This document shows positions 6,131 to 54,436 of a stretch of 64,000 bases of DNA, one piece after another. The notes beneath the pieces were generated by a model that was not told the DNA's origin, made no database searches, and worked only from the letters and a program-made list of their open reading frames with translations. The first letter of the stretch is position 1; every line of letters starts with the position of its first letter. The position numbers were made by a program, and so were the translations under genes. The stretch comes from Candidatus Aenigmatarchaeota archaeon (lineage in GTDB: Archaea > Aenigmatarchaeota > Aenigmatarchaeia > Aenigmatarchaeales > JACQIB01): NCBI GenBank assembly GCA_043799675.1, contig JAZDNN010000024.1:7418-71417 (forward strand), given 5' to 3'.

Positions 6131-6218
6131 TGGAGCCTCGGGAGGGAATTGCACCCTCGACCTGCTGTTTGCTTGGTTGCTTACAAGACAGCCGCTCTTC
6201 TGCCTGAGCCACCGAGGC
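6131..6218 (-). tRNA. tRNA-Thr(UGU) with a 12-nt mini-intron
   Basis: 88 nt.
- Acceptor: GCCTCGG/CCGAGGC.
- D arm: GCTC-AGGCAGAA-GAGC.
- Anticodon stem: GCTGT/ACAGC. The loop is CUUGUAA after removing a 12-nt intron (6170..6181; central helix CUUG/CAAG, bulges UAA and CAA).
- T arm: GAGGG-UGCAAUU-CCCTC, with an atypical G at position 55.
- CCA is encoded. Confidence 0.8.
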
Positions 6219-13547: not shown

Positions 13548-14774
13548 ATGTACAGTATGAAAAACCCGAATTTGGTTGAGGCGGCCACCAAACCCGATAT
13601 AAGGTTCAACCCGAAGCGCTACACGTATAGTGTAGACCATCATTACTTCAAGATGTGGACGCCTCAAATGGCGTATATTTTAGGGTTCGTGTTTGCGGAC
13701 GGCGGAATAGAAAGGAACAATACGACCCTTGCCTTTGAGTTGCAGATGCGGGATAAAGAGATTTTACGAAAAATAAGAGCGGCTCTAAAATCTACCCATC
13801 CGATTTCAGCGACCAAAGCAGGCGAGTATGTACGATTACGGATCAATAGCCGTCAAATAGTTGACGATTTGAAGAAGCTTGGAGTAACGCATAATAAAAG
13901 CAAAGATTGCACATGTCCAGATATCCCTCAGCGGCTGTTGCCGCACTTCGTGAGAGGGTTCGTGGACGGTGATGGCTGGATTATTCAAAGAACCGGCAAT
14001 AACAGACATGAAATAAGCGCGGGTTTCTGCCATGGTTCTAAGGGGTTCCTTAGATCGCTGGTAAATCAGATTCGAGCGGCGCTTGATATCAAGGCATTTA
14101 ATCTACGGGCTAAGTATAAGGCAACTAGCAGCGGCAAGAGGTCGTGCACATATAGCATAGAATGGTATTCACACAACGCGTCGAAATTTTTAGATTGGAC
14201 ATACAAAGACGCAGACATCTTCTTGAAAAGAAAATACCAAAGCTATCTGAGAAGCAAACGGCTTTTTGAGGAGTTTTCTTCAAAAACGCGGCTTTGGAGA
14301 AAGGTCGAAACCAAACACAGAATGCCGCTAAGAGCCATCCTCGACGGCATGTTGGCCCGGGGTTCGAGCACCTGTCAGATTTCGGGGAATGTCGGAGTTT
14401 CATCGGCTACGATTTACAGGTGGTTAGACAAAACTGACATAAGGAAACCGGTGAAGAGGGTGTCCAAAGCGCCTGTTCTCATGAAGTGCCAGACCTGCGG
14501 TGACATTTTCAGAAAGTTTAAAGAAAACGCCAGCTATTGCTCACTTTCCTGTGCGGCGAAACATATGGCAGTTTCTAGATTGTCTGGGAACAACGTCACG
14601 TGCGCTGCATGCGGTAAACGTGTTTATAGGCCGAACTGGTGGTTTGCGATAAACAGTCGCGCCTTCTGTTCCAATAGTTGTCACGGGAAATGGCAAGAGA
14701 CCCGTTTGGCGACCAATTCGCTGCAACGCTGCAGGACCGATGGCCGCTTCCTTCCTGCTTCAGGGAGGCTATAG
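13548..14774 (+). CDS. free-standing double-motif LAGLIDADG endonuclease-like protein with C-terminal HTH and zinc ribbons
   Basis: 408 aa.
- Two LAGLIDADG motifs (YILGFVFADGG and FVRGFVDGDGW).
- An HTH (QISGNVGVSSATIYRWLDK).
- Two Cys clusters (CQTCG...CSLSC and CAACG...CSNSCHGKW). Confidence 0.7.
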   Translation: MYSMKNPNLVEAATKPDIRFNPKRYTYSVDHHYFKMWTPQMAYILGFVFADGGIERNNTTLAFELQMRDKEILRKIRAALKSTHPISATKAGEYVRLRINSRQIVDDLKKLGVTHNKSKDCTCPDIPQRLLPHFVRGFVDGDGWIIQRTGNNRHEISAGFCHGSKGFLRSLVNQIRAALDIKAFNLRAKYKATSSGKRSCTYSIEWYSHNASKFLDWTYKDADIFLKRKYQSYLRSKRLFEEFSSKTRLWRKVETKHRMPLRAILDGMLARGSSTCQISGNVGVSSATIYRWLDKTDIRKPVKRVSKAPVLMKCQTCGDIFRKFKENASYCSLSCAAKHMAVSRLSGNNVTCAACGKRVYRPNWWFAINSRAFCSNSCHGKWQETRLATNSLQRCRTDGRFLPASGRL

Positions 14775-17688: not shown

Positions 17689-18927
17689 ATGGTTTTAACC
17701 AAGTACGACCGCGGACTGCTGGAAATGATGTACCTGCTCACGAGGAAGCAGAGCCACATGAACCCTTCGGGGGTGGCAAGATACCTTTCCGAGCAGGGCA
17801 TACGGGTGACGGACAGGACAGTGAGGAGATGGTTCAACTACCTCCAGACGCACCGTTTCGACTACTTCCCGTACCCGAAATTCAAGGCGATGGGCCTCAC
17901 TCCCGTGTGGGTTTTCACGGATTTCAACGAAAAAATACTTGAAGCGATTCCACACAAGGTGGCAATAGTAAGCGGATTCGACCTCAGGAACCTCGAGAAA
18001 CGCCTGCTGGGCCTTTACTTGGTTCCGACGGAGCGGCTGAAGGATTTCAGTAAATTGTGGGCGGATGCCGTGGACGCAAAGGCGTTGAGCTTCTGCCAGC
18101 TGCTTGAAGTGGGCTCAATCAACTCCTTCTATTCGCCCTTCCACAAGCTGGTTGACCGTAACGGCATCGCCGACTTCGTGGATGACCACGAGCCGGACAA
18201 TTCCTACTTCACGGACATGCTGCGGAAGAGCACCGGCACGGAAAGCAGTGCCGGGATGAGCCCGCGCATATGCAAAAACCCGCTGATAATCCCGGTAATA
18301 TGGGAATCGTTCAGGAAGAACGCGTCGTCGCAGAAGATATGGAACTCGTTCGAAAGGAGGGCGGGTAAAGCCGCATGGGATTACATAAACAACCCGAAGG
18401 TGAGGAGAGAAAAGAAGACCGGATGCGGGATAAGGCACGTGCAGAACACCATGAGGGAGATGCAGGACAATTTCGGCGAGTTCTTCCAGCAGATGAGAGT
18501 GTCATACAATCCCCTGTACACGCACCACAACAGCATGTTCTATATGCTGCTGAAGCTGAAAAGAAGGGAAGACATCGTGCCGCTCTCGGAACTGCTCTCC
18601 AAACAGGCAATCTCAATCGTGGCGTACCCGCCCAGGGACGCGAAGAGCAGCCTGATGATGTACTACATCCTCACCAATGCCAAGGAAAGCGTCAATATCA
18701 TCAGCGACCTCATACAACCGTACATCGACAAGTCGTTCGACAACAGGATAATCACGGAGGACTTCAAGGGAACGGCGAAATACAGGAACCCGAACATGCG
18801 TCACTGGAAGGAGAACTACATGATGTCCTGCTACCACAAGCTGTTTGACCCCGTGACATGCACGTGGAAGTTCGATACCAAGGCGTACGCCAAAAAGCTG
18901 AACGCTGCCGGCATCAGACAGGGCTGA
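17689..18927 (+). CDS. hypothetical protein with N-terminal winged-helix/HTH
   Basis: Start taken at MVLTKYDRGLLEMMYLL (an alternative ATG lies at 17647). The N-terminal HTH is GVARYLSEQGIRVTDRTVRRWFNYL. The remaining 370 aa or so are unrecognised. Confidence 0.5.
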   Translation: MVLTKYDRGLLEMMYLLTRKQSHMNPSGVARYLSEQGIRVTDRTVRRWFNYLQTHRFDYFPYPKFKAMGLTPVWVFTDFNEKILEAIPHKVAIVSGFDLRNLEKRLLGLYLVPTERLKDFSKLWADAVDAKALSFCQLLEVGSINSFYSPFHKLVDRNGIADFVDDHEPDNSYFTDMLRKSTGTESSAGMSPRICKNPLIIPVIWESFRKNASSQKIWNSFERRAGKAAWDYINNPKVRREKKTGCGIRHVQNTMREMQDNFGEFFQQMRVSYNPLYTHHNSMFYMLLKLKRREDIVPLSELLSKQAISIVAYPPRDAKSSLMMYYILTNAKESVNIISDLIQPYIDKSFDNRIITEDFKGTAKYRNPNMRHWKENYMMSCYHKLFDPVTCTWKFDTKAYAKKLNAAGIRQG

Positions 18928-20335
18928 TGTTCTTCTCCAGCAGCTTGCAGATGAAGACGCGGAAATCCGGAGGAAGTTTTGATAGCATTGTGATAACCGG
19001 GGCACCGCTGGCAACGGTTGATTTCAAAAGGGCAGATGCTATGTGGCTCGGCATTCCTTTGCCCAAAAGAACATGCTCGGGCTGCGCAAAGAACGATTTC
19101 AGGTAATCCAGGGCGACCGTGTGTTCCCTCTCCGTTTCGGTGACCCAGCAGTCCTTCTCTATCCAGCACTTCTTCTCCCTGTAATGCTCCAAAAAGGCCT
19201 TTGCCTGCTTGTGCGACCAGATGGTCGGGCCGACGTGCTTCACCACCCGAGGAACCTGCCACACCTCGAGCTCGAACAGCAGGATGCAATCCTTTCCGTC
19301 CGCCCACACGTCCCTCCTGAGCACGCGGAATCCGCCGTCCGCCAGGAGACCTTCCAGGGAAGCGGAGGCCTTCCGCATCTGCGGCCACAGGGTATCATCC
19401 ACCAGATTCATCGGACGGTCGAACCTGACAAGGTACCAGCGGGTGCGCCTCCTTGCTATGGCTGCAGCCACTTCCTTCACGCTGTACGGCCTGGCGCGGG
19501 GAGGGAAGAACCACTTCTGATGGGGCAACAAAATGAAATCCCTGCACGCCCTGGCAAAAGCAAAGAAGCTGTCTGCCGAGACCGCCGCGGCAACGTTGCG
19601 GTTCGGGTCCACCGGATCTATCACCATCATGGGGGCGCGGAACTTCTCCAAAGCGGCCTGATAATCAACGGCCTTCCGCTCAAGGTCTATCAGGAGGCCT
19701 GCCTCCCATTTCTGCGCCTCGGCCGCGCAGCGGGCAAAACTGCCGTAATGAATGGCAAGCAACTCGCAAAGGTAGCCGGAGAAGCCCTGCGTCTTCACGT
19801 CGGCGCCATAAGCTCCTGCAGCTTTTGCGAAAGCCTTGATGAGCCTCGCGGTGTCGGACAGGTCCGGAGTGAAACGCTTCTTGATATAGGAAACGTGGTG
19901 CGGGGTCCTATCGACCGCGGACTTTATCCTCGACGGATCGGGAACGTCATACGCGGGCACGACGTCTATCGCATAATCCAGCTTTCCCGACTTCATCGAG
20001 CCGCGGAGGTAGGGATGCTCGGCATAGGCTATCTCCCACTTGCCGTTGAGGGTGGAAATTATCTTCTTCGCGAGGTCAAGCCCCTTCTTCTCAAACTCTT
20101 CCCGGCTGACGGCGGGATTGAAAAGCAGGAACAGGTCGAACTCGCGCTTTCCGGCAAGCCAGGTGCCCTTCTCCACCGAGCCGCACATCACGGGCACGGC
20201 CGTGTTTCCCGCTATCTTTGAGGCGACCTGCATCACGGCATTCACGGCCGATTGCATGGCTGACTGGTCGGAAGCGGAGGGGCGTATTTTCTTCAGAACG
20301 GAAGTAAGGACCTTCTCAACCGGCTGCGCTGGCAT
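18914..20335 (-). CDS. cca: class I (archaeal) CCA-adding tRNA nucleotidyltransferase
   Basis: Inner ATG at 20335 gives 473 aa. It has GSVEKGTWLAGKREFDLFLLF (the nucleotidyltransferase G[SG]...D.D motif), EHPYLRG, VDVVPAY and DRTPHHV. Confidence 0.85.
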   Translation of the reverse strand: MPAQPVEKVLTSVLKKIRPSASDQSAMQSAVNAVMQVASKIAGNTAVPVMCGSVEKGTWLAGKREFDLFLLFNPAVSREEFEKKGLDLAKKIISTLNGKWEIAYAEHPYLRGSMKSGKLDYAIDVVPAYDVPDPSRIKSAVDRTPHHVSYIKKRFTPDLSDTARLIKAFAKAAGAYGADVKTQGFSGYLCELLAIHYGSFARCAAEAQKWEAGLLIDLERKAVDYQAALEKFRAPMMVIDPVDPNRNVAAAVSADSFFAFARACRDFILLPHQKWFFPPRARPYSVKEVAAAIARRRTRWYLVRFDRPMNLVDDTLWPQMRKASASLEGLLADGGFRVLRRDVWADGKDCILLFELEVWQVPRVVKHVGPTIWSHKQAKAFLEHYREKKCWIEKDCWVTETEREHTVALDYLKSFFAQPEHVLLGKGMPSHIASALLKSTVASGAPVITMLSKLPPDFRVFICKLLEKNISPV

Positions 20336-20381
20336 ACCTTTAATTGACAGCCTATAAATAAAGGCTAAGGAAAGATTCGGT

Positions 20382-20813
20382 ATGCTGGTCTCGGAAGTGA
20401 TGAACAAGCGGGTCAGGACCTGCCGGAAGGACGACACTGTCCGCCAGGCAGCGCAGGAAATGAACAAGTGGCACATAGGGAGCCTGATCGTGGTGGACGG
20501 CCCGGGAAAGGTCATAGGAATAATAACGGAGAGGGACATCCTGACCGAAGTGGTGGCCAAAGGCCTGCGGAGCGATGACGTGGATGTCAAGGAAATAATG
20601 ACCGGAGACGTGATAGAGGTCGAGTCCAGTGCCACCCTTGAGGATGCGGCCGAGATAATGACACTTAAAAAAATAAAGAAGCTGCCGGTGGTGAGGAAGG
20701 GGCAACTGGTCGGCATCGTGACGGCGACCGACCTGATAATGTACGAGCATTCGCTGATAGAAAAAGTGTCAACCCTGCTGCAGACCGGAAAAAAGGCCGC
20801 TGTGTGCGGCTAA
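20382..20813 (+). CDS. CBS-domain pair protein
   Basis: 143 aa with two CBS motifs (VIGIITERDIL and LVGIVTATDLI). Confidence 0.8.
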   Translation: MLVSEVMNKRVRTCRKDDTVRQAAQEMNKWHIGSLIVVDGPGKVIGIITERDILTEVVAKGLRSDDVDVKEIMTGDVIEVESSATLEDAAEIMTLKKIKKLPVVRKGQLVGIVTATDLIMYEHSLIEKVSTLLQTGKKAAVCG

Positions 20814-47801: not shown

Positions 47802-47921
47802 TAACCCACCATCAGTTTAATTCGCTGCGGCGTAATAGCTCCATAAAAGGTTATAAAGCTATTGGACTGGCGCAAGGCATTTCACGACCGGTCATTTAAG
47901 AGCCGGAAAACAAAGCTGCTC

Positions 47922-48353
47922 ATGCCGAAGTTCAGGTTCATTCCCGAGATAGCGATAGCTGATGTAGCCTTCGAAGCGGAAGGTAAGGACATCAATGAGC
48001 TGTTTGTGAACTGCGCCCTTGCAACCGAGGAATCCATGGTCAACACAAAGAAGGTGAAGCCGAAGGTCAGCAAGACCATAAAGCTGGAAGCGGATGCGCT
48101 GGACAGACTGATGATTGACTGGCTGAACGAGGTGATTTACTACAAGGACGCGGAGGGGCTGCTGTTTTGTGAATTCATCGTCAAGGTATTGCAAAAGGGA
48201 AAGAACTGGACGCTTGAAGCCACGGCAAAGGGCGAAAAGAGGGACCCGAAGAAGCACGAGCTCAGGGCGGATGTGAAGGCGGCGACTTGGCACCTTTTTG
48301 AACTGAAGCAGGAAAAGGGCAAGTGGAAAGCGAGGATTGTAGAGGATATCTGA
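47922..48353 (+). CDS. archease (RtcB activator)
   Basis: ATG at 47922 gives 143 aa. It has IADVAFEAEGKDINELF, KAATWHLFEL and the overall length typical of archease. It lies 1.9 kb upstream of rtcB. Confidence 0.75.
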   Translation: MPKFRFIPEIAIADVAFEAEGKDINELFVNCALATEESMVNTKKVKPKVSKTIKLEADALDRLMIDWLNEVIYYKDAEGLLFCEFIVKVLQKGKNWTLEATAKGEKRDPKKHELRADVKAATWHLFELKQEKGKWKARIVEDI

Positions 48354-49260: not shown

Positions 49261-50127
49261 TTAGCTGCGCTCTCCGGAAACCGTTCCGGTAACTGAAAAC
49301 CCGTTACTGCCGCTATCCAAGTATGTCATCGTTACAGCGAGGGTATATGGATCTCCAACGTGGCCATTCACTCCCATGGTATTTGTGCCTGTCAGCCATA
49401 CCCTTTCCAGAGGGAATAAGTTCATGGGCACGTTCATGGATGGTATTTGTAAACCGTTGACGCTTACAGACGTAATGCTGATGGTATCGCCAACCCTGTC
49501 CTCCACCCACAATTTTAACGTACCATTTGCAGCGTAATCGACATCCAGCACACCTATGTTCGTGAAGCCGCTGATTGTCTTGGGAGTGCAGGTCTGTGAT
49601 TCCTGCGGTTTGCTTGTCGTTGTCCCGCAAGAATTCGTGTCAATGCATGTTCGCATCCGCGTTCCGCCGGCACCGCACGCGGACCATGCATCGCATTGCC
49701 AGTTAGGAGTACATGTACATGGTTGTGTTTCCAAAGGCCTGTCGCTAAACAGATTGCATCTGTTTGCATCCGTGCATACCCTGCTCTGATTTCCCGAATT
49801 ACTGCAATTGGTCCATGCACTGCACTGCCAGTCAGGCACGCAGGGTGGCGTGCAGAACTGGGTTTCAACAGGCTTGTTATAATTCACGCTGCAGGAATTC
49901 GCATCTATGCATGTCCTTGTCTGCGTTCCTGAAGCGGAGCATGCATTCCACGCCCCGCACTGCCAATCAGGCGTGCATACTGGGGGCATCAGAGGCCCAC
50001 TTGGCTTAATCAGGGATTGCACAATATACAACGATGCAAGCGCAACGATTATTACAGCCAGAACCAAGATAATGACGTTTTTCTTTTCGGATTTAGGCAC
50101 ACCTATTTTCTTTTCTGACTTAGGCAC
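49261..50127 (-). CDS. membrane-anchored protein with three TSP1-like cysteine repeats (tandem paralog 2)
   Basis: 288 aa with the same architecture as 48363..49196. The N-terminal PKSEKK is duplicated. Confidence 0.6.
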   Translation of the reverse strand: MPKSEKKIGVPKSEKKNVIILVLAVIIVALASLYIVQSLIKPSGPLMPPVCTPDWQCGAWNACSASGTQTRTCIDANSCSVNYNKPVETQFCTPPCVPDWQCSAWTNCSNSGNQSRVCTDANRCNLFSDRPLETQPCTCTPNWQCDAWSACGAGGTRMRTCIDTNSCGTTTSKPQESQTCTPKTISGFTNIGVLDVDYAANGTLKLWVEDRVGDTISITSVSVNGLQIPSMNVPMNLFPLERVWLTGTNTMGVNGHVGDPYTLAVTMTYLDSGSNGFSVTGTVSGERS

Positions 50128-50210: not shown

Positions 50211-51795
50211 ATGGAGCAGGAACCTGAAAAGCAGACAGGCAGTCTGCCGAAGGAAATCAAGAAAATCAGCGAGGTCGTCTGGGAACTGCCCACCAGCTAC
50301 AAGAAAGGCATGCGCGTGCCGGCAAGAATATATGCGACCAAGAAGCTGCTCGATGCGATGGACGCGGGAGTGTTCGAGCAGGTCACCAACGTCGCGACCC
50401 TGCCGGGAATCGTCAAGCATGCGTTCTGTATGCCGGATGGGCACTGGGGTATGGGTCAAGTCGCGGCTTGATTCACTCAAATATGGGTTCCCAATCGGCG
50501 GCGTGGCTGCATTCGACCCGAAGGTCGGCGTGATCAGCCCGGGCGGCATCGGGTTCGACATCAACTGCGGCATGAGGTTCGTCACTACCAACCTTACTGT
50601 CAAGGACGTCAAACCCAAGCTGAAAGAACTGGTGGATATCCTGTTCAGGACGGTTCCCGCGGGCGTGGGCGGGGAAGGGTTTGTAAAATTAAGCCGCAGC
50701 CAATTCGACGAAATAATGGTCCAAGGGGCCAATTGGGTCATCGAGCACGGCTACGGTTGGAAAGAGGACACGGAAAGAATAGAGGAGTACGGCTGCATCA
50801 AAGGTGCTGATCCGTCAAAGGTCAGCGACAAGGCAAGGACCAGAGGCATCACGCAGATGGGGACGCTCGGCTCAGGGAACCATTACCTGGAAATCCAGAC
50901 TGCCGAGAAAATTTTCCTTCCCGAAGTCGCAGAGGCATTCGGCGTGAACGAACAGGGGCAGATAGGGGTGATGGTGCACTGCGGCTCGAGGGGGTTCGGC
51001 CACCAAATCGGAACGGATTATCTCAGGATATTCGACATGGCAATGAAGAAGTACAACATCACGGTGCCTGACAGGGAGCTTGCCTGTGCGCCTTTTGCGA
51101 GCCAGGAAGGACAGGATTATTATCACGCGATGGCCTGCGCGGCAAACATGGCTTTTGCCAACAGGCAGGTGATTTTGCACAGGATACGCGAGGCTTTTGC
51201 AAAGGTGTTCAGGAAATCCCCCGAAGACATGGAAATGCACCTGGTGTACGATGTCGCGCACAACGTGGCCAAGGTGGAGAAACACCTGGTCGACGGTCAT
51301 GAAAAGGAACTGGTGATGCACCGGAAGGGGAGCACGCGCTGCTTCGGTCCGGGTAGGCCGGAGATTCCTGAAGCTTACCGCAAGGTCGGCCAGCCGGTGA
51401 TTGTGGGCGGCAGCATGGAAACGGGCAGCTTTTTGTGCGTGGGCACGGACAAGGCTCTGACAGAAACATGGGGAAGCACCATGCACGGCGCGGGCAGAAC
51501 CATGAGCAGGACTTCAGCGAGGAACCAGGGCTCGGGCTTGGCGTTGCAGAAGAAGATGGCCAAGGAAGGGATACTGGTGGAAGCCACGAGCATGAGCGGG
51601 CTTGCAGAGGAAGCGGGCTTTGCCTACAAGGACCTGAACGAAGTGGTCGAGACCATGGAAATCGCGGGCGTGAGCAGGAAGGTCGTTCTGCTGAGGCCTT
51701 TGGGTAATATTAAAGGCACCGCCCGGGCCTCATACAGCCTTTTAGCTTTCCCCATACTTGTCATGGTCTTGGCCTTGATTTCGTCCCTTATCTGA
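50211..51795 (+). CDS. rtcB: RNA-splicing ligase RtcB, coding sequence interrupted by a 31-nt BHB intron (exon 1 50211..50450, exon 2 50482..51795)
   Basis: - Exon 1 (80 aa) ends ...LPGIVKHAFCMPDGHWG.
- Exon 2, in another frame, starts YGFPIGGVAAFD...GGIGFDINCGMR, and HCGSRGFGHQ and further motifs follow.
- Joining at 50450/50482 recreates the universal MPD.H.GYGF.IGG motif.
- Unspliced, the first frame stops at 50469-50471 after 86 aa.
- The C-terminus carries a hydrophobic extension of about 25 aa after the usual ...IKG end. Confidence 0.85.
50451..50481 (+). other. predicted bulge-helix-bulge (BHB) intron within the rtcB mRNA
   Basis: - Central helix: UGGG (50445-48) / CUCA (50476-79).
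- Bulges: GUA (50449-51) and AAU (50480-82), each 3 nt.
- Inner helix: 9 bp, UGGGUCAAG/CUUGAUUCA, with loop UCGCGG.
- Cleavage after the 2nd bulge nucleotide on each side removes exactly the 31 nt needed to restore the frame. Confidence 0.75.
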
Positions 51796-52859
51796 ACGAT
51801 AAGCGGTTCGACCTGTTTCCACCTCGTGATGTTCTTGCCGATTATTTCGAGAATCAATTCCTTTTTGGCCGTTTTCTCGGGATGCCTCAACGGCAGCAAT
51901 TCGAGCATCCGACGGACATCGGCCTTCCTGAAGATTTCTAAGGCGAAATAATCCTTGCTGTATCTTATACTGACCCCATGAGTGTCTCTGCCGTCCCCGC
52001 GCCTGAAAATCCTGTATAGAATTGGATTAAAGCCCTGTTCCCTTAGTTGCCGTTTTATCCTACCAAGCAAGGTTTTATTTTCGGTGCCTATCCGCATACA
52101 ACACTGCAAATTTTCCCTGATTTTCTTGACCAGAAGCGACCCTTCCGCATCGAAGTAGCCGGCCAGGAACGACAGGAAAACATTCCGTTCGGATTCGACC
52201 AACTCTGAAATCAATCGTTTCCTGTTTTCCAGCAAGAGGAAGTCGAAGCTGTTGTCGAGGTCTGCGGATGTCGTCCACATGTAATTTCCAAAAGTTCTGT
52301 TCTTCGCAGGATATGTCCTTACCTTCGCATATCCTTTGAACAGGCTCTCGAAGACATCCAGGAATCCTTCATGAGTCGTGTTGGTTATGGCCCGAATGGT
52401 ATGCTTCGATCTTCTGAAGGCTGTCACATCACCCTCCACGAAACCAACCATGTAAGCCTTTTCTTCATCCTTTCCATCAAAACTTTGCCGTTCATGTTTC
52501 CTGTTTGTCAGCAGGATAGCCTCATCGTTTCCACGCACCCGAAAGCCGTTTTCTTCCAGCACCTTATGCAACGTGCCTTTGGAAGAACCAAATTTCTTGG
52601 CCAGCTTTTTCAACGATATTTTCTCCGTGTCATAAAGTCTCAGAATTTCCGTCACAGGCAGGTGTTTCCTGTGAGACAACGAATGTGCCTGACTGAGATT
52701 CCTTATCGGTATGTCAAGTTTGATGAACCGTTTTCTTACGGCCGACCACGATATATCGTCTCCGAGCTTAACACTCAATATCGCCGCCACTTCTTTGAAC
52801 GTCTTACCGGACGAATAGAGACTCTCGGCTTCCTTCAGGAGTTCGCTGTTCAGCTTCAT
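51624..52859 (-). CDS. LAGLIDADG endonuclease-like protein with N-terminal HTH domains
   Basis: 411 aa. There are two N-terminal HTH-like segments (GKTFKEVAAIL and ISLKKLAKKFGSSKGTLHKVL), then LAGLIDADG motifs (YMVGFVEGDVT and FLSFLAGYFDAEGS). It lies directly downstream of the DGR RT. Its last 172 nt overlap the 3' end of rtcB on the opposite strand. Confidence 0.65.
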   Translation of the reverse strand: MKLNSELLKEAESLYSSGKTFKEVAAILSVKLGDDISWSAVRKRFIKLDIPIRNLSQAHSLSHRKHLPVTEILRLYDTEKISLKKLAKKFGSSKGTLHKVLEENGFRVRGNDEAILLTNRKHERQSFDGKDEEKAYMVGFVEGDVTAFRRSKHTIRAITNTTHEGFLDVFESLFKGYAKVRTYPAKNRTFGNYMWTTSADLDNSFDFLLLENRKRLISELVESERNVFLSFLAGYFDAEGSLLVKKIRENLQCCMRIGTENKTLLGRIKRQLREQGFNPILYRIFRRGDGRDTHGVSIRYSKDYFALEIFRKADVRRMLELLPLRHPEKTAKKELILEIIGKNITRWKQVEPLIVQIRDEIKAKTMTSMGKAKRLYEARAVPLILPKGLSRTTFLLTPAISMVSTTSFRSL

Positions 52860-52914: not shown

Positions 52915-53991
52915 CTAATCATGCAGAATACATCCAAAAATATTATTATACCTTCCAGCGAGCGCATTTCTCAACCTGAACGTGTCGCCCTGCGCCGCAT
53001 AGGCCATCCAGCCCTCAAGGCTTTTCGCAGCCTGTTCTGCCGAAATCTCACCGGATTCGTACTGCAGTCTGAGTGCCGTCATCCTTTTTTCGAGCTTCAG
53101 CAGGTTCCTCCTTTTTGGAATCCTGTAGTGGTAGAACACCCTGAAGCCGAGCAACGATATCCCCTTATGCAAAGGGTAGACCTGCGATTTTTCCTCATGC
53201 AACTCTAGCTTTAACCGTTGTTTGAGGAACCCGTTTATCCCGCTCCTGAACTGCATCAGCGCGGCCTCAGACCTGTCCAGAATCACGAAGTCATCTACAT
53301 ACCGGAGATAGAACCTTGCCTTAAGCACGTGCTTCACGAAATGGTCCAGCTCATTCAGGTAGACGTTCGCGAAGAACTGGCTCGTCTGATTGCCTATCGG
53401 CATCCCCTTCGGCAGGGCAGGGTCGTTGTTCGACAGGATTTTCCGTACCAGCCAGAGCACGCTTTCGTCCCTTATTTTTCTCCGTATGATGCCAATCAGG
53501 ACATCGTGGTCGACGCTCGGGAAATAGTGCCTTATGTCGGCCTTCAGTGCATAGCCGACCACCATGTTGTTGTCCTTCGCGCCGTGCACCAAACGGCCGT
53601 TCCCGGAAACCTTTCGCTTGAAGCAATCAAACCTGTCCAATGCTGCCAGGCCGCCCTTTCCCTTCCTGTTGGCGTAGCTGTCGTGGATGAACGTTTTGTC
53701 GAAAATCGGTTCGAGCACGTTGCATAACGCATGATGGACAACACGGTCCCTGAAATGCGAGGCATGAATTACCCGTGTCTTGGGGTCGCGGATGATGAAC
53801 CGTTTCAACGGGCGCGGCGAATACGTACGATTTTCAAGCTCAGTTTTCAAATCTGCCAATTCGCCATCAAGATTAGCTTCGAATCTTTTGACATACCATT
53901 TCTTCGACTTGCCCTTCCTCGCCTTTCTGAATGCCAGCAAAAGGTTCTCTGGCGAGCAGACCTTTCCGTAAAGGTTGTCAAATGTTTTCAA
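52915..53991 (-). CDS. DGR-type reverse transcriptase
   Basis: 358 aa with an apparent TTG start. RT motifs 1-7 include RVIHASHFRDRVVHHAL, the DGR-diagnostic PIGNQTSQFFANVYLNELD (I/LGxxxSQ) and the catalytic YLRYVDDFVIL. It has no maturase or endonuclease domains, and it sits 30 nt downstream of the TR. Confidence 0.85.
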   Translation of the reverse strand: MKTFDNLYGKVCSPENLLLAFRKARKGKSKKWYVKRFEANLDGELADLKTELENRTYSPRPLKRFIIRDPKTRVIHASHFRDRVVHHALCNVLEPIFDKTFIHDSYANRKGKGGLAALDRFDCFKRKVSGNGRLVHGAKDNNMVVGYALKADIRHYFPSVDHDVLIGIIRRKIRDESVLWLVRKILSNNDPALPKGMPIGNQTSQFFANVYLNELDHFVKHVLKARFYLRYVDDFVILDRSEAALMQFRSGINGFLKQRLKLELHEEKSQVYPLHKGISLLGFRVFYHYRIPKRRNLLKLEKRMTALRLQYESGEISAEQAAKSLEGWMAYAAQGDTFRLRNALAGRYNNIFGCILHD

Positions 53992-54162: not shown

Positions 54163-54436
54163 CTCGTCCGTGTTCCAATCCGACCTGACGGAAGGGTTTC
54201 GGTAGCCTCTCCACCGACATGACACCGCGGCTTCAATCTTCGGGAACCTACCAACTGAAACCGCTGAATTTAATGGCACAAGCATTCGGACGGCATGAAA
54301 TGCCATCGCACCATCTTGCGCTCTATGGAAAGGCGTATAGCGCGGGCCTTTGCCGGGAGAATGAAATACCCGCCCCCCGATTGGGAAGGAAAGAACTCTG
54401 TCATGCAAAAATTGAGGGACGAAACGATTTATGCGC

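Follow-up and report, generated by a model that had tools for sequence, protein, structure and literature searches.

Introns of archaeal tRNAs are marked by a bulge-helix-bulge (BHB) fold, and the relaxed forms of this motif (hBH, HBh' and BHL) are cut by tRNA-splicing endonucleases (EndA) of the (alpha-beta)2 or epsilon2 type (PMC5829648; PMC6379350). Introns of the same kind have been described in the pre-mRNA of cbf5 in Crenarchaeota (Desulfurococcales and Sulfolobales), where each of the two bulges is cut between its second and third residues (Watanabe 2002; Yoshinari 2006; Yokobori 2009; PMC2738675). A first-pass annotation of the DNA studied here named cbf5 of Crenarchaeota as the classic protein-coding BHB intron, and it is indeed the only BHB intron of an archaeal mRNA described in the literature searched. 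The present analysis concerns a stretch of 64,000 nucleotides (the window) from contig JAZDNN010000024.1 of a Candidatus Aenigmatarchaeota archaeon, in which the gene of the RNA ligase RtcB is interrupted by 31 nucleotides at 50451-50481 (Table 1). This segment is very probably an archaeal BHB intron in the rtcB coding sequence of an Aenigmatarchaeota-lineage archaeon of the DPANN superphylum, which would be cut out by EndA and closed by RtcB itself, and which appears to be a locally slid variant of an intron found more widely.

The proposed rtcB intron resembles that of cbf5 in that the predicted cleavage between the second and third bulge residues falls on the exon borders, in that it is present in particular lineages with losses, and in that it gives rise to errors of gene prediction. 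The two share no sequence relationship. The host gene encodes an RNA ligase rather than a pseudouridine synthase, and thus the enzyme expected to complete the splicing; it belongs to DPANN archaea, where introns occur at several positions in rtcB and some copies of the gene have two. Splicing of cbf5 has been shown by experiment, whereas that of rtcB is predicted from sequence. With archaeal tRNA introns it shares geometry, size range and presumed enzymes, and the window itself contains a tRNA-Thr with such an intron. In contrast to the tRNA case, the intron lies in an mRNA and its central helix has one coding strand, which is constrained by an invariant protein motif, and a failure to splice would lead to a truncated protein instead of a defective tRNA. 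No description of an rtcB intron was found in the literature searched, most subscription journals lying outside its scope, and a prior report is possible. The BHB intron in this mRNA thus appears to be undescribed, both for its unusual, self-referential host gene and for its broad distribution.

The interruption can be read from the frames of the gene. The open reading frame (ORF) at 50211-50471 is the unspliced first frame: past the 80-codon N-terminal part, which ends CMPDGHWG at 50450, it continues as MGQVAA and reaches the stop codon UGA at 50469-50471, six codons further on. The remainder of RtcB lies in another frame, which reads YGFPIGGVAAFD from 50482 and translates around this position as ...KYGFPIGGVAAFD. 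These three points had been made in the first-pass annotation and agree with the ORF list and the translations. So does its statement that the RtcB motif is recreated by removing exactly 50451-50481, as this is the only 31-nucleotide deletion at the DNA level that yields an RtcB product with the GYG motif. Removal of 50450-50480 was also considered and rejected; it gives G-Y-G at the protein level too, but only one of the four central-helix pairs then forms. Joining 50450 to 50482 produces an RtcB core of 492 residues and a tail of 25 residues. The spliced product covers positions 1-426 of 426 of the Pfam RtcB family (PF01139; E = 5e-171) and aligns with Pyrococcus horikoshii RtcB (4dwr, 1uc2; E = 2e-177) free of gaps at the junction, where the window has MPDGHWGYGFPIGGVAAFD and P. 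horikoshii RtcB has MPDGHQGYGFPIGGVAAFD; exon 2 aligns gap-free to the PDB RtcB chains 4dwr and 7lfq. The predicted spliced junction of the window is CACTGGGGT joined to TATGGGTTCCC, and that of the common type of relatives is CACTGGGGAT joined to ACGGTTTCCC.

A 7-nucleotide direct repeat, TATGGGT, had been noticed at both junctions and was thought to allow alternative pairings. The repeat is real (50450-50456 and 50482-50488), but its period is 32 nucleotides, not 31, which leaves no ambiguity of the splice site, and it has no evident role. The repeat is found at none of the rtcB intron sites of the relatives, and this absence, together with the period of 32, rules out a target-site duplication or slippage artefact.

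The borders of the interruption coincide with a BHB fold. Recomputation reproduced the central helix UGGG:CUCA of four base pairs with one G-U and the bulges GUA and AAU of three nucleotides each, as first annotated; the inner helix given there as 9 base pairs with a 6-nucleotide loop is the 10-base-pair helix with a 4-nucleotide loop of Table 1 less its last U-G pair. The inner hairpin is present in both the minimum-energy and the centroid folds, the region 50430-50500 folds with z = -2.5 relative to shuffles, and a fold constrained to contain the central helix is only 0.5 kcal/mol less stable than the minimum-energy fold (-26.9 vs -27.4). In the strict register the exon-exon closing helix has no contiguous pair and the intronic helix is strong (10 base pairs); the energy model prefers a 7-nucleotide 3' bulge closed by C50444:G50487 and A50443:U50488, plus distal helices. 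Strict register and energy model therefore agree with the earlier view that the outer helix is weak and the form relaxed, and the rtcB intron fits a relaxed BHB, not the strict hBHBh' form. When the cleavage rule known from cbf5 was applied in silico, the recomputed geometry again placed both cuts behind the second bulge nucleotide, at 50450/50451 and 50481/50482, which is the junction that restores both the frame and the GYG motif. The tRNA-Thr intron of the window agrees with the same rule.

Such a motif alone is not rare, since a loose BHB scan gave about 81 matches in the window on both strands compared with 100-135 in Markov shuffles. A screen for BHB motifs that merge two open frames was likewise non-specific, with hundreds of matches in this window of 54% GC and long spurious ORFs. 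With an inner helix of at least 10 base pairs, however, there are only 7 BHB matches among about 5.9 million combinations of position, length and strand, and such a BHB would coincide by chance with the one combination that restores the frame at a probability of about 1e-6.

Many relatives have an insert at this site too. A degenerate pattern (MPDGHxG, 20-50 nucleotides, GFPIGG) was run against one genome per species of bacteria and archaea, and 41 species-representative genomes matched. Among these, 32 are named Micrarchaeota/Micrarchaeia, Woesearchaeota/Nanoarchaeia/Nanoarchaeota or Aenigmatarchaeota; the other nine are recorded as 'uncultured Methanosarcinales' (seven) or 'uncultured archaeon' (two). 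The taxonomic labels of the 'uncultured Methanosarcinales' records look doubtful: six of the seven have a hairpin that nearly matches the one in the Woesearchaeota records, and the remaining one (L025) has the same splice-site motif with a different hairpin. Introns with a 3' end of the CCCUUG/A type (the slash marks the splice site) occur in the 'uncultured Methanosarcinales archaeon' records L004, L012, L025, L030, L037 and L040. Further same-site inserts were found in metagenome and assembly contigs (L001, L002, L044/L045 and L046), for a total of 44 distinct sequences besides the window, with inserts of 27-39 nucleotides. In the closest RtcB relatives, which have 94% and 91% identity and come from one JGI metagenome and one NCBI assembly, the gene is likewise annotated as two ORFs. 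These two loci, L001 and L002, have the same exon 1 start and sequence as the window and a 32-nucleotide insert at the same place, whose hairpin sequences are quite different from that of the window; L046 is a third close relative with a same-site insert. Conversely, two relatives with 81% identity are intron-less and read through the site as CACTGGGGCTACGG and CATTGGGGGTACGG, and other Aenigmatarchaeota-like RtcB matches are uninterrupted as well. The comparison with related genomes that the first-pass annotation had proposed thus finds the intron in 44 other sequences and absent from two. As far as sequences can tell, the intron is real and conserved rather than a one-off, and represents the window's own version of a feature that is widespread in DPANN archaea.

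In each of the 44 other sequences, the best canonical BHB register coincides with the one that restores G-Y-G, and the central helix has four of four pairs in 28 of them. Their predicted splice position lies without exception inside the Tyr codon, behind its first base (...GGA U/.../AY GG). In the window it lies one nucleotide earlier (...GGU/.../UAU GG), in phase 0, which leaves the encoded protein unchanged, and the central helix (UGGG:CUCA) is displaced by one base on both strands relative to these sequences. The window intron therefore looks like a one-nucleotide slide of the widespread DPANN intron. A clade-specific pattern scan of metagenome contigs returned only the identical L044 and L045, which belong to the ...ACCAAA/AC class; it brought up no second phase-0 variant, and it missed the L001 contig too.

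Covariation was assessed in an alignment of 45 sequences (the window and the 44 others). Paired cells amounted to 88.4%, compared with 62.3% in shuffles (none of 500 reached 88.4%); sliding the partner strand lowered the share to 35-60%. Compensatory double changes were found at all nine aligned pairs of the inner helix. The intron strand of the central helix tracks the exon codon, with GGGG:CCCU for Trp, AAGG:CCUU for Glu and GCGG:CCGC for Ser; at central pair 19:59, G-C is replaced by A-U in seven cases and by C-G in one, in step with the codon. Apart from structure, the intron sequence is free to vary. By length modulo 3 the introns fall into classes of 19, 9 and 17 sequences, and each of the 19 in-frame introns contains an in-frame stop; the insert is therefore not translated. 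The segment YGFPIGG, by comparison, is strictly conserved in the exon 2 frame of every sequence.

The interruption after MPDGHWG is accompanied by others in the same gene. The protein database contains 453 short N-terminal RtcB fragments (70-150 residues), some of them named 'partial', and among the best 120 of the 453 about half end within a few codons of MPDGHWG, others at different places. Four other rtcB interruptions in relatives have a BHB at each frame-restoring position (Table 1). Among 30 loci with the G-Y intron and a locatable downstream motif, the GIGFDINC region contains another short insert in at least nine and a long one in five, four of the long inserts being of about 1.5 kb, the size of an intein; a Pfam intein domain was found at L049. 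There are thus at least five insertion sites within about 30 codons for the most conserved motifs, often with two introns in a gene and sometimes with an intein in addition, and DPANN rtcB appears to be repeatedly interrupted in the codons of its most conserved N-terminal motifs. Introns at other sites were seen at L047/L048, L049, L050/L051, L005, L007, L008, L018, L021, L026, L035, L036 and L040; some of these are only 12-17 nucleotides long, and they are often the second intron of the same gene. Intein-sized inserts after DINC are present at L010, L031, L044/L045 and L049.

The gene bears the marks of a working one. Across the window, L001 and L002, both exons are under purifying selection, with a ratio of nonsynonymous to synonymous change (pN/pS) of 0.10-0.22 for exon 1 and 0.08-0.11 for exon 2. 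Synonymous change (pS) in these sequences is two- to threefold lower in exon 1 (0.15-0.27) than in exon 2 (0.50-0.55), which may be due to RNA-level constraint, recombination or sampling noise from only 80 codons. An intact gene for archease, the RtcB cofactor, lies 1.9 kb upstream of rtcB, and archease is upstream of rtcB at L002, L047 and L054 too. The lineage is indicated by the class of the rtcB intron and by the arginyl-tRNA synthetase (ArgRS) of the window, whose named homologues are from Candidatus Aenigmatarchaeota, bar one weak Nanoarchaeota match. The 12-nucleotide intron of tRNA-Thr(UGU) has a central helix CUUG:CAAG, bulges UA/A and CA/A and a 5-nucleotide loop with no inner helix. 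This is the relaxed bulge-helix-loop form; ARAGORN and Rfam report the tRNA without an intron flag. With a BHB-type intron in its tRNA-Thr, the organism should need the splicing pathway and probably has a broad-specificity endonuclease.

Several observations weigh against splicing as proposed here. The exon-exon closing helix is weak and energy models favor the 7-nucleotide 3' bulge, so that a broad-specificity endonuclease would be needed. At L001, L002 and L046 and in the Aenigmatarchaeota ...ACCAAA/A class, only two of the four central pairs are Watson-Crick in the canonical register, and recognition there must therefore tolerate a poorer motif; a better-paired register at L001 and L002 was discarded, as it would remove 34 nucleotides and break the frame. 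The phase-0 splice position of the window was seen in none of the 44 other sequences, and EndA was not found among the roughly 60 ORFs of the window scanned against Pfam. Finally, the 64-kb window has a single copy of rtcB, the split one, and no second copy, but an uninterrupted rtcB could be present elsewhere in the genome.

In the proposed pathway, the pre-mRNA would fold so that exon UGGG pairs with intron CUCA between two 3-nucleotide bulges, with the 10-base-pair intronic hairpin behind. EndA would then cut behind the second nucleotide of both bulges so that, by its known mechanism, exon 1 would end in a 2',3'-cyclic phosphate and exon 2 would begin with a 5'-OH. RtcB with archease would ligate ...GGU to UAU GGG..., restoring the H-W-G-Y-G-F codons as the junction does in silico, and the intron would be released as in the splicing of tRNA and cbf5, the established pathway from which we infer the roles of EndA and RtcB. 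The unspliced mRNA would give only a fragment of 86 residues, so that new RtcB would need both EndA and RtcB already in the cell. A self-referential positive loop would then be a structural consequence of the gene layout, and bootstrapping, in which RtcB is needed for RtcB, would follow if RtcB is the only 3'-phosphate/5'-OH ligase. That selection has made rtcB a privileged host of BHB introns among DPANN archaea is a tentative and rather unlikely proposal; if true, the output of the ligase would be wired to splicing activity in a self-sustaining positive-feedback or checkpoint circuit that is cytoplasmically inherited, and the introns might have originated through the ligase and the endonuclease acting in reverse on the ligase's own nascent mRNA.

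There is about an even chance that the intron, although spliced in the proposed way, plays no part in regulation and is simply a neutral or selfish passenger. Such a passenger would be kept since the invariant motif tolerates exact deletion only, and the conserved exon bases would keep supplying one strand of the BHB. That relatives with 81% identity manage without the intron, that other Aenigmatarchaeota-like RtcB are uninterrupted and that the intron sequence drifts freely except for its structure are all in keeping with a passenger. So are the inteins found in the same conserved region of rtcB at some loci, the trapping of selfish elements at conserved sites being a typical pattern of inteins. 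A passenger accounts less readily for the occupation of the same site across four named DPANN phyla, or for at least four further BHB introns within about 30 codons, sometimes two per gene, which suggests a preferred host.

The explanations that dispense with splicing fare worse. A pseudogene, a frameshifting insertion or an assembly artefact (e.g., a TATGGGT-linked duplication) would be in line with gene callers splitting rtcB, with NCBI names such as 'RtcB family protein, partial' and with the 7-nucleotide flanking repeat, yet it is very improbable. Misassembly, which the first-pass annotation had raised, is hard to reconcile with an interruption that recurs in 44 other sequences from independent assemblies, varied in sequence and length and conserved in structure, or with a repeat that has the wrong period and is missing from relatives; a pseudogene, raised there too, is at odds with a pN/pS of about 0.1-0.2 in both exons and an intact archease gene. 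Translational recoding, either by bypass as in phage T4 gene 60 or by frameshifting, is even less likely. The stop soon after the break and the stable hairpin in the gap are superficially like the coding gap of gene 60, but the Tyr codon is split (U and AY) in 44 of the 45 sequences and exists only once the ends are joined, and thus ribosome hopping cannot produce the Tyr. Moreover, matched take-off and landing codons are absent, the gaps of 27-39 nucleotides fall in all frames, and covariation backs the BHB-specific central helix between exon and intron. Just as little probability attaches to a genuinely split gene, whose two polypeptides (80-86 and about 405-430 residues) would assemble into an active ligase in the manner of the split proteins of Nanoarchaeum. 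DPANN archaea are known for split genes, and a GTG or ATG start is called downstream at ...VAAFD. A second protein begun there would be without YGFPIGG, however, although the exon 2 frame keeps this segment strictly conserved; no genome has the two parts at separate places, and the gap always folds into a BHB that precisely rejoins the frames.

As a putative BHB intron of an mRNA, the rtcB insert can be compared with two further systems. The unconventional splicing of XBP1 and HAC1 mRNAs in eukaryotes (PMC3400036) also involves a short mRNA intron (26 nucleotides in XBP1), ends with a cyclic phosphate and a 5'-OH, exon joining by a tRNA ligase (RtcB in metazoa) and a change of reading frame. 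There, however, the endonuclease IRE1 reads twin stem-loops instead of a BHB, a transcription factor rather than the ligase is the target, and regulation is established, whereas for rtcB it is conjectured. The other comparison is with inteins, of which Pyrococcus horikoshii RtcB is a bearer. Inteins, too, interrupt rtcB within its most conserved N-terminal motifs, but they are translated and removed from the protein. The rtcB insert contains stop codons or shifts the frame, and its removal must therefore take place at the RNA level. An intein would be translated in frame, but the 31 nucleotides of the window shift the frame and the in-frame homologues hold stops.

Table 1. Coordinates of features in the window and, without coordinates, of rtcB introns at other sites in relatives (slashes mark cleavage or insertion points)
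Feature	Position	Strand	Description
rtcB exon 1	50211-50450	+	80 codons from ATG, end ...CMPDGHWG, last codon GGU; ORF list and translation
Central helix, 5' strand UGGG (exon 1)	50445-50448	+	pairs with 50476-50479, 4/4 including one G-U
5' bulge G U/A	50449-50451	+	predicted 5' splice site after second nucleotide, 50450/50451
Putative BHB intron AUGGGUCAAGUCGCGGCUUGAUUCACUCAAA	50451-50481	+	31 nucleotides; sole DNA-level frame-restoring deletion, canonical BHB geometry at borders
Inner intronic hairpin	50452-50475	+	50452-50461 : 50466-50475, 10 base pairs including 3 G-U/U-G; loop CGCG 50462-50465
Central helix, 3' strand CUCA (intron)	50476-50479	+	partner of exon UGGG
3' bulge A A/U	50480-50482	+	predicted 3' splice site after second nucleotide, 50481/50482
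rtcB exon 2	50482-51717	+	codons 81-492 (YGFPIGG ... LGNIKG), to usual family C-terminus; PDB and Pfam alignment
C-terminal extension TARASYSLLAFPILVMVLALISSLI	51718-51795	+	25 hydrophobic codons and stop; overlapped by convergent LAGLIDADG-like ORF; translation
Archease gene (RtcB cofactor)	47862-48353	+	intact; Pfam Archease E = 7e-39
tRNA-Thr(UGU)	6131-6218	-	88 nucleotides, encoded CCA; 12-nucleotide intron AGCAACCAAGCA 6170-6181 at position 37/38
LAGLIDADG-like ORF	51624-52859	-	convergent with rtcB
LAGLIDADG-like ORF	13548-14774	+	
Reverse transcriptase ORF	52915-53991	-	Pfam RVT_1, E = 3e-16
Rfam RT-16 RNA	54197-54373	-	57 bits, above gathering score
CCA-adding enzyme ORF	18914-20716	-	600 residues
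Cys-rich repeat ORF	49261-50127	-	288 residues, divergent from rtcB
rtcB intron, MPDGH/WG (between His and Trp), L047			33 nucleotides; central helix GGTC:GACA, 3/4 pairs
rtcB intron, ISPGG/IGFD, L049			17 nucleotides; central helix GAGG:CCTC
rtcB intron, GFD/IN, L047			31 nucleotides; central helix TTCG:CGAA
rtcB intron, GFDI/NC, L050			32 nucleotides; central helix TGAC:GTCG

The 3' end of rtcB overlaps by about 170 nucleotides with one of two free-standing LAGLIDADG-like ORFs of the window, both of about 410 residues with helix-turn-helix regions; an 81%-identical copy is in the same place at L001. The RtcB tail beyond ...GNIKG is similar in P0008 (L001) and P0002 (L052, intron-less), not in P0011 (L002), and may either anchor the protein in the membrane or have arisen as a by-product of the overlapping gene on the opposite strand. 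Just downstream of the rtcB/LAGLIDADG pair lies a reverse transcriptase ORF, and about 200 nucleotides upstream of this ORF, on the same strand, an RT-16 RNA. On the other side, the ORF divergent from rtcB encodes at least three tandem Cys-rich repeats (CTP.WQC.AW..C...G...R.C.D.N.C) and has no Pfam match. The ORF of the CCA-adding enzyme matches the Pfam neck and C-terminal domains from residue 288 only, and in its N-terminal part the nucleotidyltransferase head domain was not matched, which could be due to an insertion, a mis-set start or some other interruption.

Gene callers split the intron-bearing rtcB, and RtcB is therefore likely to be scored often as broken or missing in reconstructions of DPANN genomes. 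With the rtcB intron, the known mRNA introns of archaea would gain a second family, from another superphylum and backed by far more sequences than that of cbf5, and their origin, sliding and regulation would become open to direct test.

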